64,000 nt of DNA from Bdellovibrionales bacterium (GCA_965261545.1 CBDHDF010000002.1:197080-261079), one strand, 5' to 3'; counted from the stretch's first letter, positions 13,523 through 61,150 are shown. Numbers and translations: made by a program. The notes: generated by a model not told the origin, from the sequence alone.

Positions 13523-13627
13523 ATTTGCCCCCTGCGTTTAAAAAATAAAAATTTCCTCCAATTAATCTTGACCTATTAAGATACTAACGCGAGAATCATT
13601 AAGTCTGTAGATAACTCACTTGTATCT

Positions 13628-14091: not shown

Positions 14092-15176
14092 GTCTCTTAA
14101 AACACATGGCTTGTCGTGGATATCAAATGTCAATCTGCGTCCATTTCTCAAAATACCATCTATAAATATTTATAAATCGCCCACTTCCCTCTATGTAAAA
14201 AAGGAGGCTTGAAAAGTATTTCCATTAATTCGGAATTAAAATTAGAAAAAAACCACGAACACCTATGTGCTATTACTCTCAAAACTACCTATCATTTGAA
14301 TAGCATTGGCGATTTCGTTGAGAGCGGGAGAATAGCAAAGATTCTTTGTCACACCCGATAAAACGTCATAAGCATGAGATAGATACATACGTAAGAAATG
14401 AGTTTCCATCTCATTTGGGCAAGGGTACCCACAATAACCCTCCTTTAAAAGATCTTTAGAGCGAGGAAGTGCTAATTGGTCGCCATCTATGGCATAGATA
14501 TAAAAGCCATGAAACGTTTTTCTCAATGGTTCGTAGTCTGTAATCAGAGATTCAAAGATATTTTTAAAAAATAGGTAAGAAATACTTTGACGTATCTTGC
14601 TGAGACTGCTTTTGACTGGCATGAGAAGCAGGTCACCAAAATGAGTCCATACCGTCTTAAGAGCGATTTGGTAGCCTTCGTAATTTGTTCCGGAAATAAG
14701 ATAGATAATAGTAAAAAAGAAAATTTGAGGATTAAATTTTCGATTCCTTTTTTGTTTTTCTGGATCGACAAGGTGCTCTGGCTTGAAGGAAGAATCAAGT
14801 TTTGGTAGAATAAAATGGTCATCTGTGACGCGAACTCGTCATTTGGGGGCTTTCGAGATCAATATTGGATTGCATGTGACTTACTCCTTGGTTGAGGGTT
14901 GGGTGTAAAATAAAACAAGTCTTATTCTTGTCGATTTATCTAATAATTTCAAGAGATTTTTCTTAAGGAAACGGCATTGGGCTATTGGTATAGTGTTATG
15001 TGGTGAGTGCGGTATATTGAAGCCATTCACAATTAAAGTTATTCACTTTGCAAGCGATGCCAGTGCTTCTTGTGGTTTTTATTGGAAGTATAGAAAAAAA
15101 GTTGCCGGATCTAGCCAAAGAATTGCCGGATGGGACCGAATGGGGTGGGTGACCAATGGCCGGAGGTTAATGGAGT

Positions 15177-29492: not shown

Positions 29493-30955
29493 TTATTTTT
29501 TCTTCTTATATAATTAATATGTGCATAGATGAAATTTCATGTCAACATGCGAGATATAGATATCATTGTAAGATACAAGAGAAAATTTTTCTAAACTTTT
29601 GATATAATTCATTCTGAAGTTACGACTCTTTCATGGTTTTCCGTCGAGGTTATTAGGGCGTGTCCTCATTTTAGCCGGGACTGTAAAAATAATTGTGTAA
29701 CTGCAATTTTTTTCTTAAATCTTAAAGCCACTTATGTGGCTCCACTCCTAGTAAAAAGCACAGCCCCATATTATTCGTCAATGTATAATTGACATTTTTT
29801 CCTTCAAGCGATTTTGTCAGTCACAATGCATTATAATTTAATGGGGAGATGGAGCCGTAATGGGATCATATCAGAACTGGAAAGAACTCAAATAAATAAT
29901 TATCATCTTGATTGGAAAAAAATCAGCAATAGCTCTCTCAAAAAAATGGAAATTCCAATCTCATCAAAGGGTTCATGTGTTTAGGTTCCCATACTATATT
30001 ACCCCCTTTTTTTTATTTTTTTTAACTTGGGATATTCGAGAAATACCAGCATTGGGATGAAACATGAAAAAAAATGGAAACCCAAATCTGCACCAAGAGG
30101 GCATGTATTTAGGTTCCCATACTATATTACCCTAACCATAGTCTCGGTATTCCAGTACTTCTGTCAACGCCTTAGAGGGGCTTTTAAGCCCCCTTATAAG
30201 GCAGGTGGTGGACCTTATTAAAAAACTTAGTTGTCAAAACGGTCACCGTATTCAATGGCAAACCTGTTCATGGCTGGCTTCCAGTTGTGTAATGGTCGTG
30301 TCCATCGCTTAGAGGCCATTTTTATCGCTAAATATACAACTTTTAAAGCCGACCGATCACTGGGAAATATCTTACGATTTCTGATCGCCTTGCGGATCAC
30401 GCTATTTAACGACTCTATGGCGTTTGTGGTATAAAAAATCTTTCTGATTTCATCCGGATAATCGAAAATAGTGATGAGATTGTCCCAATTCCTACGCCAA
30501 GACTTTTCAATATTCGGATACTTTGAAGACCACTTGGTACAAAATTCCTCAAGGGCCTTTTCAGCTTCTGTCAGAGTCGTAGAGCCATAAATGGACTTGA
30601 GGTCTTGGGCGACAGCTTTCATATCCTTGGAAGGGACATAGCGAAGGGAATTGCGGACCATATGGACAATGCACAGTTGCACTTTAGACTTGGGAAAAGC
30701 CGCTGAAATGGCTTGAGGAAAACCTGTAAGACCATCTACAGAAAATATAAATACGTCTTTCAACCCTCGATTTTGCAGCTCAGTCAAAACACTCAACCAA
30801 AACTTTGAACCCTCATTTTCAGAAATCCATAGGCCCAACAAGTCTTTCTGACCCTCCTCTGTAATACCAAGAGCTAGGTAAATCGCCTTATTAATAACTC
30901 TCTTGTCTTGATGGACCTTCACCACGATACAGTCCAAAAATACGATAGGGTAAGT

Positions 30956-32868
30956 CCCGAGTTTGACAGCAGCATCTGCGTTAAAATGCGAAATTTCCAG
31001 AAATTGGGGTTGTACTGAAATATAATGGTAGCTGCTGGAAAAATTAAAATTGACGTAAAAAAAGTGTAGAAAACAAAATAGGATTTTATCGTTTTAAATA
31101 TTGATATATCATAGAAATATGTAGAAAATATCCTCATGTACATCCAAACGACTAAAAACTCAAAAGGTCAGTGCTACTACCACCTTGTGGAGTCCTACAG
31201 AGAAAAAGGCAAATCCAAAAAACGCATGCTCATGTCCTTAGGTAAGGCTGGAGAAGGAGGAGAGGATAAGATTAATAGTTTGGCGCAGGCCGTATCCCGC
31301 CACCGAGAGCTTCTCACTGTGAGTCAATTGGCTAAGGAGCTTTACATCGAAGAGACTTTCATTTTGGGTCCCTTGCTGATTTTACAAAAGTTGTTTGATC
31401 AACTGGGTATCAATAAGACCCTCAAAGACATAAAAGATTCTCATGAGAAAGTTCAATTTGATTTATGTAAGGTGATTTTTACCTTAGTTGCCAGCCGATT
31501 TATTGCTCCTAGTTCCAAGTTAAAGGTTTTTGAGTATTGGCAAAAATCTTTTTACCCAGACATGATTAAGGGTGATTTGAGTCTCCAGCATATTTATCGG
31601 TCTATGGACTTACTTGCCTCCCATAAGGATGAAATAGAGAACTCGCTTTATTGGGTGGGGCGAGATTTATTTAATTTCCAAGTAGACATTGTGTTGTATG
31701 ATTTAACAACCTTACGCTTCGAGAGTACAAGAACAGACTTAGGGAAACTTCGTCAATTTGGCTATAGTAAAGAGAGACGATCAGACTGCACCCAAGTTGT
31801 CTTTGGTTTGTTGGTGAATCGGGATGGCATCCCTTTAGGTTTTGAGGTTTTCCCTGGTAATACTTTTGAAGGCAAGACGCTTTCAGATATTGTTGATAAA
31901 ATGAGAAAAAAGTTTAATGTACGCCGTTTCATTTTTGTGGCTGATAGGGGGCTTTTATCAAAGGCTAATACTGACAAACTCAGTGAGGATCAAAGCGAGT
32001 TTATTGTTGGTATGAAGCTTGGATCTTTAAAAAAAGAAAAGAAACAAGAGGTCTATGATTTAAATCGTTTTAGCTGGGTATATGAGAATGAGCTTGCTGT
32101 TTACGAAACAGACCATGGGGGGCATAGATGTATTGTGACTTGGTCTAGGAAAAGAGCAGAGAGAGATAAAAAATCTAGAGAATCCCTTCTTGAAAAGATC
32201 GAAGGAAAACTATCTTCTAAAGGTGTTCAGTCTAGTACTTTTGTTTCCAATAAAGGTTATAAGAAATATGTAAAGATGGCTGACGACAAAAATAAAAAAC
32301 CTGAATTAAATGCAGAACAAATAGAATTAGATGAAAAAATTGATGGTTTTTTTGCCGTCCTTACAAATGTCAAAGACTTGACGGCAGATGAGATTATTAT
32401 CAACTACAAAGAATTGTGGAAAATTGAAGATGCTTTTGGTGAGTTAAAAGGGACTTTGAAAACACGTCCTGTTTTCCATTGGACAGACCAGAGGATTATT
32501 GGACATTTAACTCTATGCTTTTTAACTTATCTTTGTGAGGCCCACCTTACAAAATGTTTAAGAGATAAGAAGATGAACCTAAAAAGCCCAGCCATAGGCA
32601 TTGGTCATGTTAAAGAGCGACCTTTAACTGTTGTAGAGGCCATGAGGGAACTCAAGGAAGTTAGGGCTATCCCTGTTAAAATTCGTGATCAAGTCATTTG
32701 GACCCGCACAGATATCACTGGCAATGCCAACTCCTTATTTAAAGCCGCAGGCGTCCCCATCCCTCCCAGAATCCTTAATGCCCACAAGTGTGGATAAACA
32801 AAATACAACTGTATGCGTTAATCCTTTAATATCATTCGTTTGACGCAGATGCTGCTGTCAAACTCGGG
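30956..32868 (+). mobile_element. IS1634-family element, copy 1 (1913 bp), with 227-bp target duplication
   Basis: IR CCCGAGTTTGACAGCAGCATCTGCGT; 30729-30955 repeated at 32869-33095. Confidence 0.95.
31136..32797 (+). CDS. IS1634-family transposase
   Basis: YYHLVESYR, VLYDLTTLRFES, FGYSKERRSD, FVADRG, YKELWKIEDAF. Confidence 0.95.
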   Translation: MYIQTTKNSKGQCYYHLVESYREKGKSKKRMLMSLGKAGEGGEDKINSLAQAVSRHRELLTVSQLAKELYIEETFILGPLLILQKLFDQLGINKTLKDIKDSHEKVQFDLCKVIFTLVASRFIAPSSKLKVFEYWQKSFYPDMIKGDLSLQHIYRSMDLLASHKDEIENSLYWVGRDLFNFQVDIVLYDLTTLRFESTRTDLGKLRQFGYSKERRSDCTQVVFGLLVNRDGIPLGFEVFPGNTFEGKTLSDIVDKMRKKFNVRRFIFVADRGLLSKANTDKLSEDQSEFIVGMKLGSLKKEKKQEVYDLNRFSWVYENELAVYETDHGGHRCIVTWSRKRAERDKKSRESLLEKIEGKLSSKGVQSSTFVSNKGYKKYVKMADDKNKKPELNAEQIELDEKIDGFFAVLTNVKDLTADEIIINYKELWKIEDAFGELKGTLKTRPVFHWTDQRIIGHLTLCFLTYLCEAHLTKCLRDKKMNLKSPAIGIGHVKERPLTVVEAMRELKEVRAIPVKIRDQVIWTRTDITGNANSLFKAAGVPIPPRILNAHKCG

Positions 32869-33244
32869 AGACCATCTACAGAAAATATAAATACGTCTTT
32901 CAACCCTCGATTTTGCAGCTCAGTCAAAACACTCAACCAAAACTTTGAACCCTCATTTTCAGAAATCCATAGGCCCAACAAGTCTTTCTGACCCTCCTCT
33001 GTAATACCAAGAGCTAGGTAAATCGCCTTATTAATAACTCTCTTGTCTTGATGGACCTTCACCACGATACAGTCCAAAAATACGATAGGGTAAGTGCTAT
33101 CCAAGGGGCGGTTCTGCCAAGCCGTAACTTCATCAATAACAGCATCCGTCACGTTGGCTATCACTGAGTGGGATATCTCTGCACCATGGTAGAGGTCTTT
33201 GATAGCTCCTTGAATATCCCTGGTCGTCATTCCCCTCGCATAGA

Positions 33245-35792
33245 CAATGGCATTCGTTTAGTGAGAGATCCCATTCGGTTAAGGATTTGAACCTCTAACT
33301 CCTCGGGGGTGGGCTAACCCCAAGTTTTTTTCTTTGATCCATGTGATTATCCGTTGGCCATAGCCCCCCTAACCTCTTTACTGGGTCTCCATACTCCGAT
33401 GGGTTTTCTAGAAACTCGGTCGTAATGCCTATTCGGACGTAGCCTTTGTCGGCAGGTCTTCATATTTGTAATGATGCAATTGAGGGTTTTACTAAGCACT
33501 ACCTTTTGTTGAAGAAAAAGACCTTCAATATTTCTTGCAATTGTCAGTAAATTGTTTTTAAAGTTTGTCTGCATGGTTTGTTTTTTACTATGGGATTGAG
33601 ATGTATTAAGACGGTCTTCCGTGTAGTTGGAAAATAATCTTGTCAGAGTGATAAGTGTGAAGTGTGCAAACAATTCTTGTTTGACTCCCCTTTCACTTTG
33701 AGAATGAAACTCTTCAATGGTCATCAGTTCTTTGGATATTTTGTACAGTTCCTCTATACTCCAGCGTCCATGATAGAGATTGGCCAGATCATCAATGGAA
33801 TATTTTTTTTGATCCATTAAGGTTGTTCCTAGAACAAAAGTAGTTTGTCCAATTTTATATTTGACCAAACGCAAAGCGTAGGCTTTGAAGTCGTCTTGTG
33901 GCTTTTTTTTATGTAGTTCTTTCAGAATTTGCTTGCTAGGAATGACTTGGATCACTGAGTCTTTTTGATCATTATTAATAAATTCATCAAAAACAGTGTT
34001 GGCATTTCTCCTTATCCTAAACACCGCATGCAGACTTCGCACCTTATGCTCATGAAGCATTTCGTAGGAATAATAGCCACGATCATAAACCACAACATCG
34101 TTTTCAAACAATTTTTTGAAATGAGTTTGTGCAGCCTTTCTCTCATTGTTATGGGCAAAGAGATCAAAATCCACAGGAATCTTCGACTGTAGTTGGTACA
34201 GGCAACTGACAAGACCTTGAGGGTACCATGCTTTTTCCCATGGTTGCTGATACCCATTATCTACGAGTTGACGTGGTAAATTTATTTTCGATCCATCCAC
34301 TGCGAAAACCTTATGGCCCTTCCATAAGGTACTAGAATTGGATATACCGTCTTGTTTAAGAATTTCATCATGCAAAACTTTAAATATATTTTCATCTACT
34401 TTAGCCCGTGCACTACACATAGTGGATGCCCGAACTGGTTTAGGTTGAGGGAGTTCAATGTCTAATATGCGACACTGCTCCCAAAGTTCAATCAAAGTTG
34501 TATCATAACCTTGTTTTCCTTTAGAGAAAACAAGTCGGAAGATGAAAAGTATAATCAACAATGTATTCAAGACACGTTGACGCTTTTGCCAGGTTCGGTC
34601 GTACTCATCTGCAATGATAACCACTGTCTTGATGATGTTTTGCCAAAGATGCACAAAAGAGTCCTCTAGCATAGGCTCAGCCAAGTTCTTATGTGGCTTG
34701 ATGGTGGGTTTCCCGACGGGTTTAGCGCATTGGGGGCCATTCAATAAGATAGACTGATAATTTTTTGTCAGAGGTTGAACATAAACACCTTTTTGAGTTT
34801 TTCCCTTTACATTTTTGTAGGCACGACTCCCATTTGTTTTGCCCAAATAAAGCCAGTTGGCAGCACGATAGCTCGTGGCATTAAATTTGGTAAGGTCGAC
34901 AAAAGTCTCCATGAGTACAGGTTTGAAAGCATGTTTTAACTCCCAGTCTGTGGGAAGTTGGCGAGTTGCCATAGATAAAGCCATCGAAGCAAGATGGCGA
35001 ACCTTTACCCAGGGAAAGATCAAAAATCGACTATTGTTCACCACTAAATTCAAGTGCTTTTTGTAAGCTCGATTTTGCCAACCGATCCATTCATCACGGC
35101 AAGGCAAAGTGGATGTGCCAGCTTCAAATAAAAGACAACCCAATCTTCGCCCACAATTATCTAGGATGAAATAGCGCAAATGGGGACCAAAGGGACGTCT
35201 GTAATTGAGATAATGATGCCGATCGACAACTTCATTCCATTCCTTAATGGCCTCTTGATCAGTTACGATTTGCAAAGAAAGTGGGGTCAATGAGTCTAGT
35301 TTATCGTTGATGAGAGGCTTTTCATCTGTTCGGTGTGTCCAAGTGATTTTTTTGGAGGGGACACTCCGCTTTGACATGTCTTTTTCTGGCAGGGATAGAA
35401 TGTCAAGTTCCTCTAGCGTCTCAAGCATACGAAGGCACGATTGGATGCGATGATCACCTTTGGGAGTTAGCCAACCAAGATGTTCACAAACTGTATAACC
35501 CAGTTCACGGCGACTTAAAGAAGGAAATAGCGCCACCGTCTTTTGAATGTCGGCAATTTGCTTGCGCGTCAAGCGTCTTCCAAAAAAAGTTGTTGAAGGC
35601 AATGTCTCTATGCGTGGGTCCATTTGAGTCTCTCCCCTTTGGGAATGGTTCAAATATAATGTGACACAACGATGGGGTGGACTCAAGTATTTTTTTTCGG
35701 AAAAAGAAAAAAGATAAAAGCCCCCTTAACTCAGTATGTTAGAGGGAGTCAGAAAAATGTGGAAAAACCTTCTGCAAAAACGAATGCCATTG
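33245..35792 (-). mobile_element. IS4-family element C (DUF4338-fused transposase), copy 1 (2548 bp)
   Basis: IR CAATGGCATTCGTTT; 10-bp TSD CTCGCATAGA; matches 49728-52275. Confidence 0.95.
33347..35686 (-). CDS. DUF4338 (DruA-like) domain fused to IS4 DDE transposase; start may be 35626 (MDPRIE)
   Basis: N-half HHYLNY...LVVNNSRFLIFPW...ETFVD...SYRAANW..LGKT; C-half AVDGSK, YDRGY, YHGRWSIEELYK. Confidence 0.9.
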   Translation of the reverse strand: MSPPHRCVTLYLNHSQRGETQMDPRIETLPSTTFFGRRLTRKQIADIQKTVALFPSLSRRELGYTVCEHLGWLTPKGDHRIQSCLRMLETLEELDILSLPEKDMSKRSVPSKKITWTHRTDEKPLINDKLDSLTPLSLQIVTDQEAIKEWNEVVDRHHYLNYRRPFGPHLRYFILDNCGRRLGCLLFEAGTSTLPCRDEWIGWQNRAYKKHLNLVVNNSRFLIFPWVKVRHLASMALSMATRQLPTDWELKHAFKPVLMETFVDLTKFNATSYRAANWLYLGKTNGSRAYKNVKGKTQKGVYVQPLTKNYQSILLNGPQCAKPVGKPTIKPHKNLAEPMLEDSFVHLWQNIIKTVVIIADEYDRTWQKRQRVLNTLLIILFIFRLVFSKGKQGYDTTLIELWEQCRILDIELPQPKPVRASTMCSARAKVDENIFKVLHDEILKQDGISNSSTLWKGHKVFAVDGSKINLPRQLVDNGYQQPWEKAWYPQGLVSCLYQLQSKIPVDFDLFAHNNERKAAQTHFKKLFENDVVVYDRGYYSYEMLHEHKVRSLHAVFRIRRNANTVFDEFINNDQKDSVIQVIPSKQILKELHKKKPQDDFKAYALRLVKYKIGQTTFVLGTTLMDQKKYSIDDLANLYHGRWSIEELYKISKELMTIEEFHSQSERGVKQELFAHFTLITLTRLFSNYTEDRLNTSQSHSKKQTMQTNFKNNLLTIARNIEGLFLQQKVVLSKTLNCIITNMKTCRQRLRPNRHYDRVSRKPIGVWRPSKEVRGAMANG

Positions 35793-36200
35793 CTCGCATA
35801 GAGGGTCAGAATACTGTCTTCAAAGCCCTCAAGACGAGTCTTGCCTTTGGGAATGACTTGGGGCTCAAAGGAGGCACTTCGGTCACGGGGGACCTGAAGC
35901 TCCACCTCGCCTTTCTCTCCCTTTATGGTCTTTCTACTGTAACCATTGCGAGTGTTGGATTTGCGGGTCTCAGACTTCTCATGCCTCTCATAACCTAGGT
36001 GATCGTCCATTTCCGCATTAAGAGCTGTCTCTAAAACAACCTTCATCAGTTGACCCGTTATGTCGGATAAATCCTTTTGGGTCTTGACGTTCTTCGCTAG
36101 TTCCTTGCCTATTGTCTTGATATCCATTCTGCCTTCTCCTTTCAGGATGATAGTTCATCCTAATATGATTCGGCAGTTACACAAAATAGTTTACAGGCTC

Positions 36201-39017: not shown

Positions 39018-40114
39018 AAAAGATTTCGTAGACTTTTGCTTAAGTATCGGCTTGAATATTGATAGTCCTATATCGCTACCAAGGAGGGTTCGTTATGTCG
39101 CATCAAAAGCTTCTCTATGAAATCAGTGGGGGTGAGCTGTTACATAGAAAGAATATATTTCTCGATAAACCTATAAACTATGTAGGCTACACTTTGAAAA
39201 GATCCATTGTTTTGCTGATGTTTAGTTCTTTACTACAAGCAAGTGCTTCAAGTGCTTTGACCTCTTCCATGAGGTGGACCCCAATGTCAGACTGAAAAAC
39301 TTGATTTTTAAGCTACACCACAGCGCACAAAGAAGCCCCGTGTTAATGTGTTAAAGGCACCTCTCCCATATACACCTGATAAGGGGTGTAATCCTGAAGA
39401 GACTGGTGTGGCCTTTTATTATTATAAAAATTAAAATACGTTTTAAAACCTTTGTTGGCTTGAACCATTGATTTGTCTTGATAGCCTTTCAAGTACACCT
39501 CTTCGTACTTAACAGACCGCCAAAGCCGCTCGATCATGATGTTGTCTAAACACCTGCCTTTGCCGTCCATACTGATAGAAATTCCATGGCTTTTCAACAA
39601 TTTTGTGAAAACCTCAGAAGTGAATTGGCACCCTTGATCGGTATTGACAATATCAGGGCAACGTGTGCCACGAAGTCACGGAGGTGACATGCTGATGTGA
39701 AGATGGAGGTAGGTCCTCCGCACTCGGATTTCAGGATTTGAGTGCAAACAACCTTGCTGCTGCATGGGAGGCAAGGCCCTTGTAGTGAGCGAGCAAGGAA
39801 AAGGCCGTAGTAAACGGTCATGTAAGTACTAGGGAGATGAGCGAAAGCAAACCCACCGACGACGCATCGAAAGATTAACAGTCGCGTCAAAACCGAAGGA
39901 AGGTTGTCTCCGTCGGGATAAGTCTAGAGGAAGCCTGATGACCGATCTAGACGGCGTGCGGTGTATAGGGGGCATGAACCTAGTACAGGCTTCGTATCGG
40001 AACGTGGGAACCTGCTGGTGGATGATAAGGGAAACGCTATAAGGGAGACCCCCGAAGTGCTAAATACCGATGCCACCAACCAGGGGCAGAGTGATTCGTA
40101 GTAGTGATGAAGTT

Positions 40115-42027
40115 CCCGAGTTTGACAGCAGCATCTGCGTTAAAATGCGAAATTTCCAGAAATTGGGGTTGTACTGAAATATAATGGTAGCTGCTGGAAA
40201 AATTAAAATTGACGTAAAAAAAGTGTAGAAAACAAAATAGGATTTTATCGTTTTAAATATTGATATATCATAGAAATATGTAGAAAATGTCCTCATGTAC
40301 ATCCAAACGACTAAAAACTCAAAAGGTCAGTGCTACTACCACCTTGTGGAGTCCTACAGAGAAAAAGGCAAATCCAAAAAACGCATGCTCATGTCCTTAG
40401 GTAAGGCTGGAGAAGGAGGAGAGGATAAGATTAATAGTTTGGCGCAGGCCGTATCCCGCCACCGAGAGCTTCTCACTGTGAGTCAATTGGCTAAGGAGCT
40501 TTACATCGAAGAGACTTTCATTTTGGGTCCCTTGCTGATTTTACAAAAGTTGTTTGATCAACTGGGTATCAATAAGACCCTCAAAGACATAAAAGATTCT
40601 CATGAGAAAGTTCAATTTGATTTATGTAAGGTGATTTTTACCTTAGTTGCCACCCGATTTATTGCTCCTAGTTCCAAGTTAAAGGTTTTTGAGTATTGGC
40701 AAAAATCTTTTTACCCAGACATGATTAAGGGTGATTTGAGTCTCCAGCATATTTATCGGTCTATGGACTTACTTGCCTCCCATAAGGATGAAATAGAGAA
40801 CTCGCTTTATTGGGTGGGGCGAGATTTATTTAATTTCCAAGTAGACATTGTGTTGTATGATTTAACAACCTTACGCTTCGAGAGTACAAGAACAGACTTA
40901 GGGAAACTTCGTCAATTTGGCTATAGTAAAGAGAGACGATCAGACTGCACCCAAGTTGTCTTTGGTTTGTTGGTGAATCGGGATGGCATCCCTTTAGGTT
41001 TTGAGGTTTTCCCTGGTAATACTTTTGAAGGCAAGACGCTTTCAGATATTGTTGATAAAATGAGAAAAAAGTTTAATGTACGCCGTTTCATTTTTGTGGC
41101 TGATAGGGGGCTTTTATCAAAGGCTAATACTGACAAACTCAGTGAGGATCAAAGCGAGTTTATTGTTGGTATGAAGCTTGGATCTTTAAAAAAAGAAAAG
41201 AAACAAGAGGTCTATGATTTAAATCGTTTTAGCTGGGTATATGAGAATGAGCTTGCTGTTTACGAAACAGACCATGGGGGGCATAGATGTATTGTGACTT
41301 GGTCTAGGAAAAGAGCAGAGAGAGATAAAAAATCTAGAGAATCCCTTCTTGAAAAAATCGAAGGAAAACTATCTTCTAAAGGTGTTCAGTCTAGTACTTT
41401 TGTTTCCAATAAAGGTTATAAGAAATATGTAAAGATGGCTGACGACAAAAATAAAAAACCTGAATTAAATGCAGAACAAATAGAATTAGATGAAAAAATT
41501 GATGGTTTTTTTGCCGTCCTTACAAATGTCAAAGACTTGACGGCAGATGAGATTATTATCAACTACAAAGAATTGTGGAAAATTGAAGATGCTTTTGGTG
41601 AGTTAAAAGGGACTTTGAAAACACGTCCTGTTTTCCATTGGACAGACCAGAGGATTATTGGACATTTAACTCTATGCTTTTTAACTTATCTTTGTGAGGC
41701 CCACCTTACAAAATGTTTAAGAGATAAGAAGATGAACCTAAAAAGCCCAGCCATAGGCATTGGTCATGTTAAAGAGCGACCTTTAACTGTTGTAGAGGCC
41801 ATGAGGGAACTCAAGGAAGTTAGGGCTATCCCTGTTAAAATTCGTGATCAAGTCATTTGGACCCGCACAGATATCACTGGCAATGCCAACTCCTTATTTA
41901 AAGCCGCAGGCGTCCCCATCCCTCCCAGAATCCTTAATGCCCACAAGTGTGGATAAACAAAATACAACTATATGCGTTAATCCTTTAATATCATTCGTTT
42001 GACGCAGATGCTGCTGTCAAACTCGGG
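40115..42027 (+). mobile_element. IS1634-family element, copy 2 (1913 bp), with 241-bp target duplication
   Basis: Same IRs as copy 1; 39874-40114 repeated at 42028-42268. Confidence 0.95.
40295..41956 (+). CDS. IS1634-family transposase
   Basis: 553 aa, one substitution seen relative to 31136-32797. Confidence 0.95.
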   Translation: MYIQTTKNSKGQCYYHLVESYREKGKSKKRMLMSLGKAGEGGEDKINSLAQAVSRHRELLTVSQLAKELYIEETFILGPLLILQKLFDQLGINKTLKDIKDSHEKVQFDLCKVIFTLVATRFIAPSSKLKVFEYWQKSFYPDMIKGDLSLQHIYRSMDLLASHKDEIENSLYWVGRDLFNFQVDIVLYDLTTLRFESTRTDLGKLRQFGYSKERRSDCTQVVFGLLVNRDGIPLGFEVFPGNTFEGKTLSDIVDKMRKKFNVRRFIFVADRGLLSKANTDKLSEDQSEFIVGMKLGSLKKEKKQEVYDLNRFSWVYENELAVYETDHGGHRCIVTWSRKRAERDKKSRESLLEKIEGKLSSKGVQSSTFVSNKGYKKYVKMADDKNKKPELNAEQIELDEKIDGFFAVLTNVKDLTADEIIINYKELWKIEDAFGELKGTLKTRPVFHWTDQRIIGHLTLCFLTYLCEAHLTKCLRDKKMNLKSPAIGIGHVKERPLTVVEAMRELKEVRAIPVKIRDQVIWTRTDITGNANSLFKAAGVPIPPRILNAHKCG

Positions 42028-42728
42028 ATTAACAGTCGCGTCAAAACCGAAGGAAGGTTGTCTCCGTCGGGATAAGTCTAGAGGAAGCCTGATGACCGAT
42101 CTAGACGGCGTGCGGTGTATAGGGGGCATGAACCTAGTACAGGCTTCGTATCGGAACGTGGGAACCTGCTGGTGGATGATAAGGGAAACGCTATAAGGGA
42201 GACCCCCGAAGTGCTAAATACCGATGCCACCAACCAGGGGCAGAGTGATTCGTAGTAGTGATGAAGTTCTTGTAATGAGAATGGAGCGAAGGGGTCACAT
42301 GATTTATGGAAGTAGTCAGGCCAACTTGGTTATGCTGAGGAGGAGCCTAATGAAACGGAAAATCATAGGAGCCGTGTGAGGGGAGACTTTCAAGCACGGT
42401 TCTGTGAGGGGCAGTGGGGGAAGTTCCCACTGCCTACTCGATCAAATGTTTCTATGGCTTCCTCAAAGACTTCTAAACAAAAAGTTGTCTCAAGGCTATT
42501 AGAAAGTCTCCAAGACAGCACAAATCGGCTAAACCAATCTATCACAGCTACCCATAGGTGTTCGTGGTTTTTTTCTAATTTTAATTCCAAATTAATGGAA
42601 ATACTTTTCAAGCCTCCTTTTTTACATAGAGGGAAGTGGGCGATTTATAAATATTTATAGATGGTATTTTGAGAAATGGACGCAGATTGACATTTGATAT
42701 CCACGACAAGCCATGTGTTTTAAGAGAC

Positions 42729-48385: not shown

Positions 48386-48571
48386 TTGAATTCCTAAATC
48401 CAGTTTTTGTATTGGTCATTAGCGCGACCACAATTTTTTTCCTACTGAAACTATTTATAACAACGTCTACTGAATGAGTAGATGCTGGAACATAGAATGA
48501 ATACCACATACACATTATGTAGAAAATCAAGTAGTTCATCAATTAGTTAATAGCGCAAAAATCAAGGCACC

Positions 48572-49196
48572 GTGTGCCACGAAGTCACGGAGGTGACATG
48601 CTGATGTGAAGATGGAGGTAGGTCCTCCGCACTCGGATTTCAGGATTTGAGTGCAAACAACCTTGCTGCTGCATGGGAGGCAAGGCCCTTGTAGTGAGCG
48701 AGCAAGGAAAAGGCCGTAGTAAACGGTCATGTAAGTACTAGGGAGATGAGCGAAAGCAAACCCACCGACGACGCATCGAAAGATTAACAGTCGCGTCAAA
48801 ACCGAAGGAAGGTTATCTCCGTCGGGATAAGTCTAGAGGAAGCCTGATGACCGATCTAGACGGCGTGCGGTGTATAGGGGGCATGAACCTAGTACAGGCT
48901 TCGTATCGGAACGTGGGAACCTGCTGGTGGATGATAAGGGAAACGTTATAAGGGAGACCCCCGAAGTGCTAAATACCGATGCCACCAACCAGGGGCAGAG
49001 TGATTCGTAGTAGTGATGAAGTTCTTGTAATGAGAATGGAGCGAAGGGGTCACATGATTTATGGAAGTAGTCAGGCCAACTTGGTTATGCTGAGGAGGAG
49101 CCTAATGAAACGGAAAATCATAGAGCCGTGTGAGGGGAGACTTTCAAGCACGGTTCTGTGAGGGGCAGTGGGGGAAGTTCCCACTGCCTACTCGAT
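48572..49196 (+). ncRNA. ORF-less group II intron, copy 2, uninterrupted (625 nt)
   Basis: GTGTG start; DIII-like cgtagtagtgatgaag..gtaatg..ggagcgaaggg; DV at 49123-49156; DVI ending AT; DIV only about 70 nt. Confidence 0.92.
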
Positions 49197-49727: not shown

Positions 49728-52275
49728 CAATGGCATTCGTTTAGTGAGAGATCCCATTCGGTTAAGGATTTGAACCTCTAACTCCTCGGGGGTGGGCTAA
49801 CCCCAAGTTTTTTTCTTTGATCCATGTGATTATCCGTTGGCCATAGCCCCCCTAACCTCTTTACTGGGTCTCCATACTCCGATGGGTTTTCTAGAAACTC
49901 GGTCGTAATGCCTATTCGGACGTAGCCTTTGTCGGCAGGTCTTCATATTTGTAATGATGCAATTGAGGGTTTTACTAAGCACTACCTTTTGTTGAAGAAA
50001 AAGACCTTCAATATTTCTTGCAATTGTCAGTAAATTGTTTTTAAAGTTTGTCTGCATGGTTTGTTTTTTACTATGGGATTGAGATGTATTAAGACGGTCT
50101 TCCGTGTAGTTGGAAAATAATCTTGTCAGAGTGATAAGTGTGAAGTGTGCAAACAATTCTTGTTTGACTCCCCTTTCACTTTGAGAATGAAACTCTTCAA
50201 TGGTCATCAGTTCTTTGGATATTTTGTACAGTTCCTCTATACTCCAGCGTCCATGATAGAGATTGGCCAGATCATCAATGGAATATTTTTTTTGATCCAT
50301 TAAGGTTGTTCCTAGAACAAAAGTAGTTTGTCCAATTTTATATTTGACCAAACGCAAAGCGTAGGCTTTGAAGTCGTCTTGTGGCTTTTTTTTATGTAGT
50401 TCTTTCAGAATTTGCTTGCTAGGAATGACTTGGATCACTGAGTCTTTTTGATCATTATTAATAAATTCATCAAAAACAGTGTTGGCATTTCTCCTTATCC
50501 TAAACACCGCATGCAGACTTCGCACCTTATGCTCATGAAGCATTTCGTAGGAATAATAGCCACGATCATAAACCACAACATCGTTTTCAAACAATTTTTT
50601 GAAATGAGTTTGTGCAGCCTTTCTCTCATTGTTATGGGCAAAGAGATCAAAATCCACAGGAATCTTCGACTGTAGTTGGTACAGGCAACTGACAAGACCT
50701 TGAGGGTACCATGCTTTTTCCCATGGTTGCTGATACCCATTATCTACGAGTTGACGTGGTAAATTTATTTTCGATCCATCCACTGCGAAAACCTTATGGC
50801 CCTTCCATAAGGTACTAGAATTGGATATACCGTCTTGTTTAAGAATTTCATCATGCAAAACTTTAAATATATTTTCATCTACTTTAGCCCGTGCACTACA
50901 CATAGTGGATGCCCGAACTGGTTTAGGTTGAGGGAGTTCAATGTCTAATATGCGACACTGCTCCCAAAGTTCAATCAAAGTTGTATCATAACCTTGTTTT
51001 CCTTTAGAGAAAACAAGTCGGAAGATGAAAAGTATAATCAACAATGTATTCAAGACACGTTGACGCTTTTGCCAGGTTCGGTCGTACTCATCTGCAATGA
51101 TAACCACTGTCTTGATGATGTTTTGCCAAAGATGCACAAAAGAGTCCTCTAGCATAGGCTCAGCCAAGTTCTTATGTGGCTTGATGGTGGGTTTCCCGAC
51201 GGGTTTAGCGCATTGGGGGCCATTCAATAAGATAGACTGATAATTTTTTGTCAGAGGTTGAACATAAACACCTTTTTGAGTTTTTCCCTTTACATTTTTG
51301 TAGGCACGACTCCCATTTGTTTTGCCCAAATAAAGCCAGTTGGCAGCACGATAGCTCGTGGCATTAAATTTGGTAAGGTCGACAAAAGTCTCCATGAGTA
51401 CAGGTTTGAAAGCATGTTTTAACTCCCAGTCTGTGGGAAGTTGGCGAGTTGCCATAGATAAAGCCATCGAAGCAAGATGGCGAACCTTTACCCAGGGAAA
51501 GATCAAAAATCGACTATTGTTCACCACTAAATTCAAGTGCTTTTTGTAAGCTCGATTTTGCCAACCGATCCATTCATCACGGCAAGGCAAAGTGGATGTG
51601 CCAGCTTCAAATAAAAGACAACCCAATCTTCGCCCACAATTATCTAGGATGAAATAGCGCAAATGGGGACCAAAGGGACGTCTGTAATTGAGATAATGAT
51701 GCCGATCGACAACTTCATTCCATTCCTTAATGGCCTCTTGATCAGTTACGATTTGCAAAGAAAGTGGGGTCAATGAGTCTAGTTTATCGTTGATGAGAGG
51801 CTTTTCATCTGTTCGGTGTGTCCAAGTGATTTTTTTGGAGGGGACACTCCGCTTTGACATGTCTTTTTCTGGCAGGGATAGAATGTCAAGTTCCTCTAGC
51901 GTCTCAAGCATACGAAGGCACGATTGGATGCGATGATCACCTTTGGGAGTTAGCCAACCAAGATGCTCACAAACTGTATAACCCAGTTCACGGCGACTTA
52001 AAGAAGGAAATAGCGCCACCGTCTTTTGAATGTCGGCAATTTGCTTGCGCGTCAAGCGTCTTCCAAAAAAAGTTGTTGAAGGCAATGTCTCTATGCGTGG
52101 GTCCATTTGAGTCTCTCCCCTTTGGGAATGGTTCAAATATAATGTGACACAACGATGGGGTGGACTCAAGTATTTTTTTTCGGAAAAAGAAAAAAGATAA
52201 AAGCCCCCTTAACTCAGTATGTTAGAGGGAGTCAGAAAAATGTGGAAAAACCTTCTGCAAAAACGAATGCCATTG
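49728..52275 (-). mobile_element. IS4-family element C (DUF4338-fused), copy 2 (2548 bp)
   Basis: Same IRs and length as copy 1; no TSD. Confidence 0.95.
49830..52169 (-). CDS. DUF4338 domain-IS4 transposase fusion
   Basis: 779 aa, identical translation to 33347-35686. Confidence 0.9.
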   Translation of the reverse strand: MSPPHRCVTLYLNHSQRGETQMDPRIETLPSTTFFGRRLTRKQIADIQKTVALFPSLSRRELGYTVCEHLGWLTPKGDHRIQSCLRMLETLEELDILSLPEKDMSKRSVPSKKITWTHRTDEKPLINDKLDSLTPLSLQIVTDQEAIKEWNEVVDRHHYLNYRRPFGPHLRYFILDNCGRRLGCLLFEAGTSTLPCRDEWIGWQNRAYKKHLNLVVNNSRFLIFPWVKVRHLASMALSMATRQLPTDWELKHAFKPVLMETFVDLTKFNATSYRAANWLYLGKTNGSRAYKNVKGKTQKGVYVQPLTKNYQSILLNGPQCAKPVGKPTIKPHKNLAEPMLEDSFVHLWQNIIKTVVIIADEYDRTWQKRQRVLNTLLIILFIFRLVFSKGKQGYDTTLIELWEQCRILDIELPQPKPVRASTMCSARAKVDENIFKVLHDEILKQDGISNSSTLWKGHKVFAVDGSKINLPRQLVDNGYQQPWEKAWYPQGLVSCLYQLQSKIPVDFDLFAHNNERKAAQTHFKKLFENDVVVYDRGYYSYEMLHEHKVRSLHAVFRIRRNANTVFDEFINNDQKDSVIQVIPSKQILKELHKKKPQDDFKAYALRLVKYKIGQTTFVLGTTLMDQKKYSIDDLANLYHGRWSIEELYKISKELMTIEEFHSQSERGVKQELFAHFTLITLTRLFSNYTEDRLNTSQSHSKKQTMQTNFKNNLLTIARNIEGLFLQQKVVLSKTLNCIITNMKTCRQRLRPNRHYDRVSRKPIGVWRPSKEVRGAMANG

Positions 52276-52418
52276 CATGAAGAGGGGCTTGAAAGAGGGC
52301 GAAGAGAAGAAGAGAGGCCAGTGCTTTAAAGATGATTTTAAAAGGACAGGAGGCTTTGGAGATATCCGAAGCAACAGGGCTTTCTGAAGACGAAATCAAG
52401 GCTCTCCAAAAAAAGTAA
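52276..52418 (+). pseudogene. 3' remnant of an Rpn-family gene
   Basis: HEEGLERG...MILKGQEALEISEATGLSEDEIKALQKK* matches the tail of 61455-62432, with a 1-nt frameshift. Confidence 0.85.
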
Positions 52419-54213: not shown

Positions 54214-54257
54214 GGCTCTGTGAGGGGCATGAGGGAAGTTCCCACTGCCTACTCGAC
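54214..54257 (+). ncRNA. Diverged 3' remnant (end of DV plus DVI) of the group II intron
   Basis: ggctctgtgaggggcatgagggaagttcccactgcctactcgac compared with ggttctgtgaggggcagtgggggaagttcccactgcctactcgat. Confidence 0.8.
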
Positions 54258-54262
54258 TCAAA

Positions 54263-55081
54263 ATGCTGTATCGTTACACGGGGCAGCCCGTGAGCTTCGA
54301 ACTCAATAACTATCACTTCCACCACAGAGAATACGACCCAAATATCCTTCGATTCACAAGCATTGATCCCGCTAGGTACAACGAATCTCCCTATATTTAC
54401 AGCAACAGTAATCCCACCAATTTTATGGATACCACGGGGGGACAACCGACATATATCACCCTTTGGCTTAGTCAAAGCGATCCAATCATTCAACCGTCCG
54501 ACGCAAAATCTGTATTGAAGTATAATTCTTTATCATCACGCCAAGAAGGTGCTCCTGACAGAATCTTGCATGAAGATCTTGCATTAACTGATATGGGTGA
54601 GGGTGTAAAAGGGAATATCTTTTCTGAGGATATTCGTCTGGGAACAATTATTGTCAGTACTCATGGAAATCCCGATTCGGTAATGGTAGCAGACAGATCA
54701 GTGAGGCCAAAGGAGCTACTTCTTTATTTAGTTCGTCGTGTAAGGGAAATAGATCCATTAGGGGTGGAGCAGGTAGATAGTATTACTCTTGCTGCATGTC
54801 GGGTAGGTTGTTGGAGGCCGGAACAGCCTTCTTTTGTAGATCGCCTTGGTTGGATGAACTTCAGAGAAGAACCGGCCGATTTTCCAAGTTTGAAGCGTGT
54901 TGCGGGCTCCCCTTACGGAGTAGGGACGGAGCGAGACTTCTCAAGCGATAATCTCATGGCGTTACATTTCTTAACGCCTCGAAAGCTTTCAGATACTGGT
55001 TATTATTATGAAGACATAATAGGGGCCAAACTAGATACAGGTCGATTCTTACGGGGGTATGGATCTAACGTAGTAACCTGA
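54263..55081 (+). CDS. Orphan RHS core with C-terminal putative cysteine-protease toxin domain
   Basis: YRYTGQ...YHFHHREYDPNILRFTSIDP...PYIYSNSNPTNFMDTTG core; tip has VSTHG...ITLAAC. Confidence 0.75.
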   Translation: MLYRYTGQPVSFELNNYHFHHREYDPNILRFTSIDPARYNESPYIYSNSNPTNFMDTTGGQPTYITLWLSQSDPIIQPSDAKSVLKYNSLSSRQEGAPDRILHEDLALTDMGEGVKGNIFSEDIRLGTIIVSTHGNPDSVMVADRSVRPKELLLYLVRRVREIDPLGVEQVDSITLAACRVGCWRPEQPSFVDRLGWMNFREEPADFPSLKRVAGSPYGVGTERDFSSDNLMALHFLTPRKLSDTGYYYEDIIGAKLDTGRFLRGYGSNVVT

Positions 55082-58189: not shown

Positions 58190-58335
58190 TGCAAAATTTC
58201 ACCTAGTTTGACCCACCCAATTTCACCTGGTTTGACCCACCCAATTTCACGAAGTTTGACCCACTGAATTTCACCAAACATTGACCCACTTAGATCTTCA
58301 TAGATATTCTTTCTGCGCTACGCATTAACGAGGAG

Positions 58336-59859
58336 GTGTCTATGGGCAAACAAGGTAAGAAAAAAGGAGCAAGAATGATCAACAATATTAAGAAATACAT
58401 AGAGCTTGGACTCAGTTCGAGACAAATAGCTCGAGCTATGGGTGTTAGTCGGAACACTGTGAAGAAGTATGTGAAGGATAGTCCCGGAGGCCCTAACAGC
58501 CGCTCAAAGGGGTCGCATGGGCCCTACCAAGCCCCATGGTCATCCAAGGTGAATTGGACAGATGTTCGCCTCAAGCAAAGCCTAGGGACTCAATTGGCTC
58601 ATTACTGGGAGCGACATATTCAGTCCGAGATTGACGGTGTGAGTTATCTTTCTTTTTGGAGAGAGTTTCGTCGGAGGCACCCAAGTATAAAGCTTGATAT
58701 GCACCAGACATTCACCCCTGGTGAACGGAGTGAGTTTGACTATAAGGGAAAAGACTCTTGTTTTGGCTATACAGATGCCAAGACTGGGGAGTTCATCCCA
58801 TGTCGATTATTTGGAATGATACTTCCATCGAGTCAGTTTTTCTTTCCATGCGCCACATTAACAGAGCAGCGGGAAGATGTTTTTTCCTCCATAGCTTCTG
58901 GTTTTGAGTTTTTTGGTGGTGTGACCGGAACCATTGCTTTTGATAACGCAAAGGTTCAAGTGACAAGAGCTGATACTTATGACCCCGATATTAACTCTGA
59001 GTTTCACCTCTTGTGTGATCACTACAATGTGGCTCCTTTGGCGATGAGGCCATCTCGCCCCAAAGACAAGAGTCTTATCGAAAATACCCTTGGAGTCTTT
59101 TGGCGCTGGTCTTGGCCCCAGATAAGAGAGCGGCAAATGTATTCTCTAGCAGACATCAACGCTGAGTTGAAGCATTTGGCAGCTATTTTCAATGATCGTA
59201 TTCAAAAAAAGTATGGGTTGAGTCGTCGACAGAAGTTTGAATCTTTTGAGAAGTCAAAATTGAATCCTCTTCCTGAAAGACGCTATGAGAGTGGATTCTG
59301 GAAGCATTCCAAGGTTCATCCGGATTGTCACATTCAATATAACTACAATTTTTACTCTGTTCCTTATAAGCATCGCGGCAAGAAGTTAGATATTCGTATT
59401 AGCCAACAATGCTTGGAGGTTTATTCAGAATTAGAGCGGGTGGCGATACATCACATCCCCCAGGGCAGTCGAGGGCGCTACTTTACGACAAAATCTCATC
59501 TCCCTAAGTCCCACCGGGCCATTTTAGAGCAAACGCCACAAAATGTACTTAAAGAGGCATCAAGCCTTGGAGAAAGCATTCACAAAGTTGCCGAGCGGCT
59601 TATCAAAGAGCCTCGCCATCCGCTTATGTATCTTCGTCGTGTTCAGGGGATACTCAATCTAAGAAAACGGTATTCAACAGCTTCTTTGGAGCAGGCTTGC
59701 TCATTTTTTGTAGATGCAGCTTTAAGTGACATTAGGGTTCGTGGAGTTGAGAAAGTTATTTCAGCAAAAAGTCATCGAAAAGAGGAGCCAAGAGTCTGCC
59801 GTCAACCTAATGAAAATTTAAGAGGTTCAGAGCACTGGGAGAATGCTTGCCGCCACTAA
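58336..59859 (+). CDS. istA: IS21 transposase IstA
   Basis: N-terminal HTH (SSRQIARAMGVSRNTVKKY), SEFDY, AFDNAK, RPKDKSLIEN, YSVPY. Confidence 0.95.
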   Translation: MSMGKQGKKKGARMINNIKKYIELGLSSRQIARAMGVSRNTVKKYVKDSPGGPNSRSKGSHGPYQAPWSSKVNWTDVRLKQSLGTQLAHYWERHIQSEIDGVSYLSFWREFRRRHPSIKLDMHQTFTPGERSEFDYKGKDSCFGYTDAKTGEFIPCRLFGMILPSSQFFFPCATLTEQREDVFSSIASGFEFFGGVTGTIAFDNAKVQVTRADTYDPDINSEFHLLCDHYNVAPLAMRPSRPKDKSLIENTLGVFWRWSWPQIRERQMYSLADINAELKHLAAIFNDRIQKKYGLSRRQKFESFEKSKLNPLPERRYESGFWKHSKVHPDCHIQYNYNFYSVPYKHRGKKLDIRISQQCLEVYSELERVAIHHIPQGSRGRYFTTKSHLPKSHRAILEQTPQNVLKEASSLGESIHKVAERLIKEPRHPLMYLRRVQGILNLRKRYSTASLEQACSFFVDAALSDIRVRGVEKVISAKSHRKEEPRVCRQPNENLRGSEHWENACRH

Positions 59860-59940
59860 TCACATAGCCCCGGTGGGTGGTTCTCAACCACCTAACGGGT
59901 CATTTTGACCTCCATAAGAGAGGTCGTATAGGAGAAGAAA

Positions 59941-60669
59941 ATGATTAAACAAACAGAAAATTTATTAGAGATATTAAAAATGAGGGGAGTTTTAGCAACC
60001 TTGAGCCAGAGGCTCAAAGAAGCTGAGGAGCAGGATCTTGGTTACGAGGACTTTCTAAATGTCATCTTTGAGGACGAAAAAATCCATCGTGAAAATCAGA
60101 AGGTCTCAAGACTTATCAAAAGAGCAGCTTTGCAGCAAAAAGCAAGCCTTGAGGCCTTTGAAACCAAATCCAACCGAGGAGTCGATCGAAGAGTTTTGAG
60201 TGATCTAGCCCTTATGAGATTTGCTCAAAGAGGTCAAAATATAATTATCTCTGGCCCAACGGGTGTTGGAAAGTCATATTTGGCTTGTGCCATAGGTAAT
60301 CACGCCTGTCGCCAAGGTTTTTCCACTCAGTTCTTCAGAATGAATACTCTTGTTGAAAAATTCAACTTAGAAAGAGCCCAGGGGACATATCTAAACTTCC
60401 TTAAAAGGCTAAAATCAGTCTCGATACTTGTGTTGGATGATTTTGGTATCAAGCCCCTTACCTCTAACCAATATCAAGACCTTTACGATGTGATTGATGA
60501 ACGAGGCCCTGACCTGAGCCTCATTCTTACAACCCAACTTCCAATAAAAAATTGGAGTGAAGTCATTGAGGATCCCATCGTTTGTGAAGCTATTATGGAT
60601 CGCATAACCTCTCAAGCTATCAAAATAGCCATGTCTGGAAGCTCATTTAGGCAGAGAAAGACGATTTAA
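59941..60669 (+). CDS. istB: IS21 helper ATPase IstB
   Basis: GPTGVGKS and LDDFG motifs. Confidence 0.96.
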   Translation: MIKQTENLLEILKMRGVLATLSQRLKEAEEQDLGYEDFLNVIFEDEKIHRENQKVSRLIKRAALQQKASLEAFETKSNRGVDRRVLSDLALMRFAQRGQNIIISGPTGVGKSYLACAIGNHACRQGFSTQFFRMNTLVEKFNLERAQGTYLNFLKRLKSVSILVLDDFGIKPLTSNQYQDLYDVIDERGPDLSLILTTQLPIKNWSEVIEDPIVCEAIMDRITSQAIKIAMSGSSFRQRKTI

Positions 60670-60678
60670 GGAGAATCC

Positions 60679-61086
60679 ATGCAAAGGCAGACCTTGGAAG
60701 ACACCATCGGGAGACACTCCATCGGAACTATTGAATCATGTACCCGCCAGTTATCCACAAAATTTACCCACGGCAGCGCTGCGTTGATAGACATCGGGGT
60801 CACAGACGCAGCGTCACCATGGATAAATTTGTGGATAACTGGCTCGCTATTCTCTGCCATTTTGAGCAATGGATTCAACATCCCCATTGAAAAACCCTCC
60901 ATTGAAACCTCAGAAATGGGGAGGGTCGAGATTCTCAATGACAAAGTGGCCAATTTTAGTTGGCATCTAACATTCTGGCAAATAAGCCTTAACCCACCGT
61001 TGGGACATCGTGACATTGAGGGTGTAAAAGTTACTGAGTCAGCAGAAAAAAGAAGGTTTAAATTGACAAAGTTTGAGCCACCGTGA
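60679..61086 (+). CDS. IS21 passenger ORF, unknown function (135 aa)
   Basis: AAGGAG RBS overlapping the istB stop; ends just before the right-end repeats. Confidence 0.65.
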   Translation: MQRQTLEDTIGRHSIGTIESCTRQLSTKFTHGSAALIDIGVTDAASPWINLWITGSLFSAILSNGFNIPIEKPSIETSEMGRVEILNDKVANFSWHLTFWQISLNPPLGHRDIEGVKVTESAEKRRFKLTKFEPP

Positions 61087-61150
61087 AATTCAAAATTGGA
61101 CCTCAAATTGACTGACTGAGGGGTGGGTCAAACTTCGTGAAATTCAGCAA

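Follow-up and report, generated by a model that had tools for sequence, protein, structure and literature searches.

Can a group II intron that has shed its reverse transcriptase (RT) gene still spread through a bacterial genome, and if so, by what route? This question is raised by a 64,000-nt stretch of DNA from a Bdellovibrionales bacterium (GCA_965261545.1 CBDHDF010000002.1:197080-261079), hereafter the window, which carries a 625-nt group II intron at positions 48572-49196 together with further copies of the same element. An earlier note, made from the sequence alone, had read this element as an intron whose RT gene has collapsed to a stub and which appears to be still mobile, and had put it forward as an undescribed system. 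Our analysis favours, with a probability of roughly 0.6, a non-autonomous intron of class IIC that spread by reverse splicing with an RT supplied in trans, the donor of which was not found.

The copy at 48572-49196 (copy B, + strand) is a complete group II intron of exactly 625 nt, uninterrupted and free of an open reading frame (ORF) for an RT. It begins with GTGTG at 48572 and ends with ...CTACTCGAT/CGAT at 49196, satisfying the GUGYG and AY rule for intron termini, and such termini are common to 40+ relatives of the window intron. Two Rfam covariance models, a comparison proposed in the earlier note, match well above their gathering scores: RF01999 (group-II-D1D4-2, domain I) reaches 88.5 bits at 48614-48731 (gathering score 36), and RF00029 (domains V/VI) reaches 66.9 bits at 49121-49196 (gathering score 40). 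The spacing between these two matches leaves no space for a protein gene.

To place the element within a family, one genome per species, covering 185,579 species, was scanned for an invariant 13-mer at the border of domains III and IV and, within 60-90 nt after it, the domain V 5' strand, a pattern that itself fixes the range of domain IV lengths and makes the sample uninformative on longer or shorter stubs. In all, 98 loci share this layout, spread over Bacteroidota, Desulfobacterota, Methylococcales, Chlorobiota and Chlamydiae, among other groups, and a profile search within them delimits about 59 complete ORF-less elements of 620-690 nt; copy B scores 408 bits with this family profile. More than one copy is present in at least 12 assemblies, and some elements lie on contigs of 614-753 bp, one of them at 210-fold coverage, as for a collapsed multi-copy repeat. 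The hypothesis of a single ancient ORF-less clade was rejected, since RT-encoding and ORF-less introns intermingle in the tree; this distribution indicates that the ORF was lost repeatedly and that ORF-less lineages persist beside a partner. At two loci, one in a Candidatus Syntrophoarchaeum metagenome-assembled genome (L073, 1248-4124) and one in a Bacillota metagenome-assembled genome (L005, 6299-7569), the ORF-less element starts at the end of a partial RT frame detected by tblastn, and may have inserted into the RT gene of another intron in a twintron-like arrangement.

An RNAalifold consensus derived from 35 ORF-less relatives contains 141 pairs, 104 of which show compensatory changes. 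Paired cells amount to 95.6% in the observed alignment, as against 73.8% after shuffling and about 40% when partners are slid, and the covariation score is 0.641, compared with 0.217 for shuffled alignments and 0.09-0.13 for slid partners. Covariation is seen in all helices, the one that closes the domain IV stub among them. When this consensus is mapped onto the window, 130 of the 141 pairs can form in copy B; failure to fold and splice was among the outcomes that the earlier note had named as refuting its reading. Domain I then spans 48577-48916 and domain II 48917-48996 (helix 16, with compensatory changes in 10 of its 11 pairs), while domain III, at 49000-49053, comprises helices 17-19 and holds a 32-mer that is identical in an RT-encoding intron from Azotobacter. 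Alignment with RF00029 places domain V at 49123-49156 (helix 21; 34 nt, GAGCCGTGTGAGGGGAGACTTTCAAGCACGGTTC, with an AGC triad) and domain VI at 49159-49194 (helices 22-23), the latter with a basal helix of 4 bp and, 7 nt before the intron's 3' end, a bulged A (49190) as branch point. All the ribozyme landmarks first reported, from the GUGUG start and domain III to the 34-nt domain V with its AGC triad and a domain VI ending in AU, were thus recovered. Judged by sequence and predicted fold, copy B is a genuine group II intron ribozyme and a candidate for self-splicing.

Between domains III and V, at 49054-49120, alignment to RT-encoding relatives leaves a 67-nt hairpin as the whole of domain IV, from which the RT ORF is absent. 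Its closing stem pairs ATGATTT with AAATCAT, and it carries CAAC at 49077-49080, a Shine-Dalgarno (SD)-like GAGGAGG at 49092-49098 and an ATG at 49105-49107, which opens an 18-codon frame, MKRKIIEPCEGRLSSTVL, running into domain V; this is the longest in-frame remnant, and the SD-like run, the ATG and the 18-codon frame are as the earlier note had described them. In BLAST against annotated plasmids, intron positions 1-478 match many group II introns of proteobacteria at 67-72% identity, and a 658-nt ORF-less relative lies on a Methylomonas plasmid; among RT-encoding relatives the nearest is carried by a plasmid of Azotobacter. Similarity to the RT-encoding introns ends at the domain III/IV border, continuing through ...TAATGAGAATGGAGCGAAGGGG, beyond which lies the short domain IV base with its CAAC, its SD-like run and an ATG at the position where ltrA starts. 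In plasmid relatives from Azotobacter salinestris and Paraburkholderia fungorum, a 422-aa ltrA product (RT/maturase) begins just where the similarity stops, and in the window element domain V is reached about five codons past the ATG. The RT ORF of the window intron has therefore been removed almost completely, with essentially all of it gone.

The deletion first proposed for the RT ORF thus stands, in line with the ltrA gene that relatives carry at this place, whereas the idea of a stub kept as a reading frame does not. Copy A, the second full-length copy described below, has one additional G at the domain IV/V junction, which shifts the frame, so that the stub ORF is not conserved. We rejected it both as a real micro-ORF and as the N-terminal remnant of an intron-encoded protein (IEP): besides the broken frame in copy A, from EPCEGR on, the peptide is no more than domain V in translation, and the initial MKRKII is unlike the MSTAK/MSDMT N-termini of the relatives. 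What is conserved is the hairpin itself. Across the ORF-less family all six pairs of the closing stem covary, and the stub retains CAAC in 33 of 35 relatives and an SD-like purine run in 35 of 35. The DIVa region of domain IV is the primary IEP-binding site in group II introns (discussed in PMC2882425), and as the CAAC and the SD-like run are kept though nothing is left to translate, we read these motifs as a retained, putative IEP-binding site resembling DIVa.

Copies of the element were located by BLAST against the 64-kb window, which yielded three matches besides copy B: intron positions 1-453 at 39663-40115, 211-625 at 42027-42442 and 581-624 at 54214-54256, all on the + strand. The first two are the parts of a single full-length copy (copy A), whose 5' part is 99.6% identical to copy B and scores 88.5 bits with RF01999, and whose 3' part matches RF00029 with 66 bits at 42367-42442. 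They are separated by a 1.9-kb insertion sequence (IS) at 40116-42026 (+ strand; Pfam DDE_Tnp_1; terminal inverted repeats CCGAGTTTGACAGCAGCATCTGCGT), which encodes a 553-aa DDE transposase at 40295-41956. Positions 42027-42269 exactly repeat 39873-40115 (intron 211-453), a duplication of about 243 bp made by this IS. A second copy of the IS, 99.7% identical, lies at 30952-32869 and is flanked by a perfect 227-bp repeat (30729-30955 = 32869-33095); target duplications as long and variable as these are typical of the IS1634 group, a putative assignment for the 1.9-kb IS. Once the nested IS and one copy of the duplication are removed, copies A and B differ at three places in 625 nt (99.5% identity): G/A at intron position 244, C/T at 375 and the 1-nt indel at the domain IV/V junction. 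The near-identical copy reported at 39663 is therefore real, with the amendment that it is a split element and not an intact twin. The third copy (54214-54256) consists of the last 43 nt only, comprising the end of domain V and a degenerate domain VI ending in CTACTCGAC; it is 93% identical to intron 581-624, is recovered by the family profile at E = 8e-6, and bears out the diverged 3' remnant of the earlier description. Its 5' truncation may reflect incomplete synthesis of complementary DNA from the 3' end, or equally well a later deletion.

The two full-length copies and the remnant fall within 16 kb of the window, and neither full-length copy is flanked by a target duplication. Beyond 14 similar upstream bases, the flanks of copies A and B are unrelated. 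Copy B is intergenic. Copy A lies antisense within an IS3-family transposase gene on the - strand, the C-terminal part of which is found at 39343-39662 (Pfam rve_3 and rve) and the N-terminal continuation at 42443-42611 and beyond. Joining these flanks in silico restores one open frame of 173 aa with rve domains, and as this occurs without any target duplication, the insertion of copy A was precise. The region 39343-42611 thus shows three levels of nesting: the 1.9-kb IS sits in the intron, which sits antisense in the IS3 transposase gene. The best explanation for these copies is recent spread within the source genome, with at least three sites occupied, all on one strand.

We then asked how the sites were selected. 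For each element, intron stretches able to pair with its own 5' flank were collected empirically, and across 41 elements this pairing piles up at one hairpin loop, corresponding to intron positions 241-246. The loop pairs at 6/6 positions with the element's own exon in 26 of 41 cases and at ≥5/6 in 38, whereas permuting exons among elements (500 permutations) gives means of 1.8 and 11.2 and maxima of 7 and 19, respectively. There are 37 different target hexamers among these 41 elements. By this pairing signal the loop is exon-binding site 1 (EBS1), and it has been retargeted many times. Intron position 304 is Watson-Crick paired with the first base of the 3' exon in 27 of 42 elements (permutation mean 11.1, maximum 21 in 2000), which identifies it as EBS3. 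In a search for an EBS2-IBS2 pairing, no intron position paired with exon positions -8 to -13 or neighbouring windows in more than 4 of 42 elements. With six nucleotides in EBS1, one in EBS3 and no EBS2 signal, recognition amounts to 6 + 1 bp.

Within the window, both insertion sites obey this rule imperfectly. EBS1 of copy B is GTTATC at 48812-48817 (+ strand), with A at 48815 where copy A has G, this being the difference at intron position 244. Its intron-binding site 1 (IBS1), GGCACC at 48566-48571, forms the last six bases of the 5' flank and pairs at 4/6 positions with its own GUUAUC, or at 5/6 with the GUUGUC of copy A, while EBS3 (U at 48875) pairs with A at 49197, the first base of the 3' flank. 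The target of copy A (39631-39662, + strand) consists of a hairpin, CCCTTGAT-N13-ATCAGGG, followed by CAAC; here IBS1, GGCAAC at 39657-39662 and 4 nt past the hairpin, pairs 6/6 with GUUGUC, and the U of EBS3 stands opposite C. GUUGUC is probably the ancestral EBS1, in which case both sites would be imperfect, ectopic targets matching at 6/7 positions, and the G-to-A change in copy B would have come later. That the element moved as a retroelement is borne out by the combination of 99.5% identical copies, unrelated sites, precise junctions and a 6/7 EBS1/EBS3 match at each.

Further features of the targets were observed across the family. Predicted folding is somewhat more stable for the 40 nt upstream of the elements than for the downstream 40 nt (-5.8 versus -3.7 kcal/mol on average, p = 0.009), and a clear hairpin precedes copy A and several relatives, while none precedes copy B or many others. 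Many ORF-less Bacteroidota copies (L014, L018, L020, L025, L028, L036, L039, L053, L081 and L099) share a CCGTTA, ACGTTA or CGGTTTA motif about 10-14 nt upstream despite differing IBS1 sequences, an observation suggestive of either a repeated target element in common or an additional determinant of recognition. Tandem arrangements also occur: at L095 (5239-7788) an ORF-less copy is directly followed by an RT-encoding one, and at L068 (6570-7405) the EBS1, GTCGAG, pairs with the terminal CTCGAC of the preceding intron. In these cases the domain VI hairpin and last bases of an intron seem to mimic a IIC target.

Assignment of the window intron to class IIC, in the subdivision of the Azotobacter vinelandii intron A.v.I2, is probable. 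The absence of EBS2, the presence of EBS3, the short recognition sequence, the GUGUG 5' end and the 422-aa IEPs of relatives, which lack an endonuclease (En) domain, all fit this class. Compared with solved structures only, a set without a class D/E/F reference, the 422-aa IEP of the relatives is closest to the GsI-IIC RT (E = 7e-46), with the Eubacterium rectale IIC RT next and LtrA and the TeI4h RT further behind. Domain VI's basal helix is 4 bp long (UGAG/CUCG) and is kept in 33-34 of 35 relatives; most IIC introns have 3 bp here and the A.v.I2 subdivision has 4 (PMC4748821). A.v.I2 itself is a IIC intron from a subdivision other than that of O.i.I1, with a divergent central domain V (PMC4748821).

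On the basis of the ribozyme's identity and fold, the loss of its ORF, its precise insertion and the EBS1/EBS3 rule, we propose the following route. Excised intron RNA would recognise single-stranded DNA through 7 bp, six between EBS1 and the 5' flank and one between EBS3 and the 3' flank, and the DNA so recognised would be the target of reverse splicing. The inserted RNA would then be copied into DNA by an RT encoded elsewhere, most likely an IEP that a related, RT-encoding intron of this genome provides and which would bind the conserved DIVa-like hairpin. Such supply in trans is suggested by other genomes (L036, L085/L099 and L095), in which ORF-less copies adjoin RT-encoding relatives whose ribozymes are 88-91% identical. 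Introns whose IEP lacks the En domain insert into the template for lagging-strand synthesis; the GC skew of the window is positive in nearly all 4-kb bins, and the shared + orientation, of only three copies in an IS-ridden region, weakly suggests insertion of this kind, which would probably take place at replication forks. Later, an IS destroyed one copy; another is now 5'-truncated, and the intact one is mutated in its exon-binding loop.

Several observations weigh against this proposal. No RT was detected in the window, either by tblastn, for which a pair of related IEPs served as queries (no match below E = 3), or with a profile of seven related IEPs against the six-frame translation (best E 0.54), as the earlier note had stated. 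A close RT-encoding parent, which that note had suggested seeking, was not found in plasmids, the 185,579 representative genomes or JGI metagenomes, where the best matches are about 72-77% identical; an exact 24-mer from the intron 5' end had no match in the representative genomes, a set from which the source species is absent, and a metagenome scan with the 32-mer common to the Azotobacter intron gave 56 loci, none above about 77% identity and none a parent. Copy B pairs at just 4/6 positions with its own exon, and a scan for promoters and terminators around it on the + strand gave nothing above shuffled expectation, both of which make current activity doubtful. Enrichment for upstream hairpins is only modest, and copy B lacks one, although the classical IIC target lies directly after a stem-loop of the terminator or attC type. 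Lastly, domain V carries AGC as its catalytic triad, where O.i.I1 has CGC (C358-G359-C360; PMC3669008), a trait of that one model intron which has not been stated to define the class. The claim of an intron that is still mobile consequently goes beyond the data, with copy A split by an IS, EBS1 of copy B mutated and no RT donor located.

The alternative that fares best is that all three copies are dead relics of a past retrotransposition burst whose RT partner has been lost. The IS-split copy A, the 43-nt stump of the third copy, the EBS1 mutation of copy B, the lack of a promoter-like site upstream of it and the massive IS activity in this genome are consistent with such a history. However, the 99.5% identity of copies A and B resembles that of clearly recent IS copies (99.4-100%), which makes the burst very recent, and copy B keeps its 130 of 141 pairs and all catalytic landmarks. 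We regard wholesale inactivity as unlikely.

More doubtful is the possibility that the element belongs with the IEP-less IIC ribozymes termed HYERs, working without any cognate maturase or RT: it would act on single-stranded DNA unaided, through hydrolysis or reverse splicing, and any copying would fall to an unrelated RT or to repair. No RT lies in the window, the element is multi-copy with many relatives in Bacteroidota and other phyla, and, going by the accounts of HYERs given in later papers, its 625 nt and its 6-nt plus 1-base recognition resemble the 637 nt of HYER1 and the 6-nt target-recognition site and 7 bp of HYERs (PMC12990946, PMC11754743). Nevertheless, dependence on an IEP is indicated both by the conserved DIVa-like motifs and by the presence, in other genomes, of related RT-encoding introns alongside ORF-less copies, and the bulged branch-point A and 4-bp basal helix of domain VI favour branching (PMC4748821). 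A stronger form of the idea, in which the source genome has no cognate group II RT at all, spread is protein-independent and HYER-like, an unrelated RT or repair polymerase does the copying, and the domain IV hairpin is an RNA-structural element, strikes us as improbable. With it goes the possibility that 7-bp targeting of other mobile elements, as in the antisense insertion of copy A into an IS3 transposase gene, represents a conflict between mobile elements.

An origin at the DNA level without an RNA intermediate, through segmental duplication, recombination or IS hitch-hiking, can be set aside as highly improbable: the window is rich in repeated DNA and 10 of 13 bases upstream of copies A and B are identical, but this similarity coincides with IBS1, likeness between the copies stops exactly at the last base of the intron and 14 bases before its first, removal of copy A restores the gene precisely and reveals no target duplication, family members have flanks complementary to their own EBS1, and the unrelated flanks of A and B rule out segmental duplication, the refutation that the earlier note had itself envisaged.

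The window as a whole is extremely rich in IS elements: its repeats fall into at least five families, 0.6-2.9 kb long and 97.8-100% identical (among them 6162-9089 = 58219-61147 and the inverted pair 12249-14267 = 44572-42553), and are interspersed with the housekeeping genes murF, citrate synthase, dusB and hflKC. Named relatives of this citrate synthase, at about 70-73% identity, belong to Bdellovibrionales metagenome-assembled genomes, and the host probably represents an unsampled lineage with affinity to Bdellovibrionota. A 2.5-kb element is present in two copies, at 33245-35793 and 49728-52276, that are 99.96% identical and encode a 779-aa protein in which a DruA (Druantia) domain (Pfam PF14236, E = 1e-35) at the N-terminus is coupled to a DDE transposase domain, an unusual pairing in a transposase. 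Six nt past the intron remnant starts an ORF at 54263-55081 (MLYRYTGQP...YDPNILRFTSIDP...NPTNFMDTTG), which has no Pfam match and may be the end of an Rhs/YD-repeat core with a variable C-terminal tip, in the manner of an orphan toxin-tip cassette. Finally, a 744-aa ORF at 2260-4494, without a match in NCBIfam, contains internal tandem or dispersed repeats (3663-4217) of about 66-160 bp and 82-97% identity.

How does this intron compare with systems already described? According to Zimmerly and Semper 2015 (PMC4424553), ORF-less introns in bacteria are rare and almost always share their genome with a related IEP; a later survey counted 888 IEP-less introns among 13,041, expanded in certain genomes (Miura et al. 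2022, PMC8919778). In Thermosynechococcus elongatus, 17 ORF-less introns arose by a deletion in DIVb, leaving ORF remnants (Mohr et al. 2010, PMC2882425), and spread to sites with good EBS/IBS matches, mobilised by 'driver' IEPs from related introns, as shown experimentally (PMC2882425). The window intron resembles the TeI3 introns of this organism in having lost its RT ORF through a deletion inside domain IV that spared the domain base and start region, with the remnant frame disrupted in copies, and in that near-identical copies occupy EBS-complementary sites, mostly in intergenic or mobile DNA; mobilisation by an IEP in trans, experimental in T. elongatus, is here the likely counterpart. 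It differs from TeI3, which is of the IIB/CL type with EBS1 and EBS2, an En-containing IEP and known driver IEPs, in being IIC-like with 7-bp recognition, no EBS2 and En-less IEPs in its relatives, and in that its donor was not found.

As described in secondary accounts, ORF-less IIC introns are widespread and multi-copy and include the HYERs, which cleave DNA hydrolytically, recognise a 6-nt site, 7 bp in all, and are represented by the 637-nt HYER1 (Liu et al. 2024, via PMC11754743, PMC12990946). By these descriptions, and not by sequence, the window intron is like HYERs in its IIC type, its lack of a protein-coding region, its length of about 0.6 kb (637 versus 625 nt), its multiple copies and its six-nucleotide target-recognition site of about 7 bp in total. 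With the RT-encoding class C introns on proteobacterial plasmids, related to A.v.I2, it shares the RF01999 domain I family, alignable domains V and VI, about 67-72% identity over domains I-III and the identical 32-mer at the domain III/IV border; with A.v.I2, going by the published description, it shares a 4-bp basal helix in domain VI (PMC4748821). Unlike it, those plasmid introns encode an En-less RT/maturase of 422 aa inside domain IV. The Oceanobacillus iheyensis intron O.i.I1 has the same GUGUG start, short EBS1-IBS1 and EBS3 pairings, no EBS2 and a compact ribozyme, and is set apart by its CGC triad (PMC3669008), a 3-bp basal helix in domain VI, its membership of the other IIC subdivision (PMC4748821) and its encoded IEP.

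Set against these precedents, with whose general descriptions the window intron agrees in every feature examined, the earlier view of an undescribed system is no longer tenable, since the trans-mobilised introns of T. elongatus (PMC2882425) and, on the accounts cited, the HYERs (PMC11754743, PMC12990946) came before it. Nor are multi-copy mobile ORF-less introns as uncommon as had been assumed, given the 888 IEP-less introns among 13,041 (PMC8919778) and the 98 loci of the same layout in the present scan. The window intron is a further example of the published non-autonomous mini-introns and not a new system, and it opens no new question, since the concept, how such elements move and how widely they occur have all been published; the mechanism put forward in the earlier note is the one accepted for introns of this kind. 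What it adds to them is a recently active non-autonomous IIC example from a poorly sampled host related to Bdellovibrionota, with an unusually clear natural history: a precise antisense insertion later broken by an IS (copy A), an ectopic insertion at an imperfectly matched site (copy B) and a 5'-truncated third copy. At the level of the family, A.v.I2-like ORF-less mini-introns occur in many phyla, are retargeted through the EBS1 loop and keep a DIVa-like hairpin, which makes these data useful background for mining compact programmable ribozymes.

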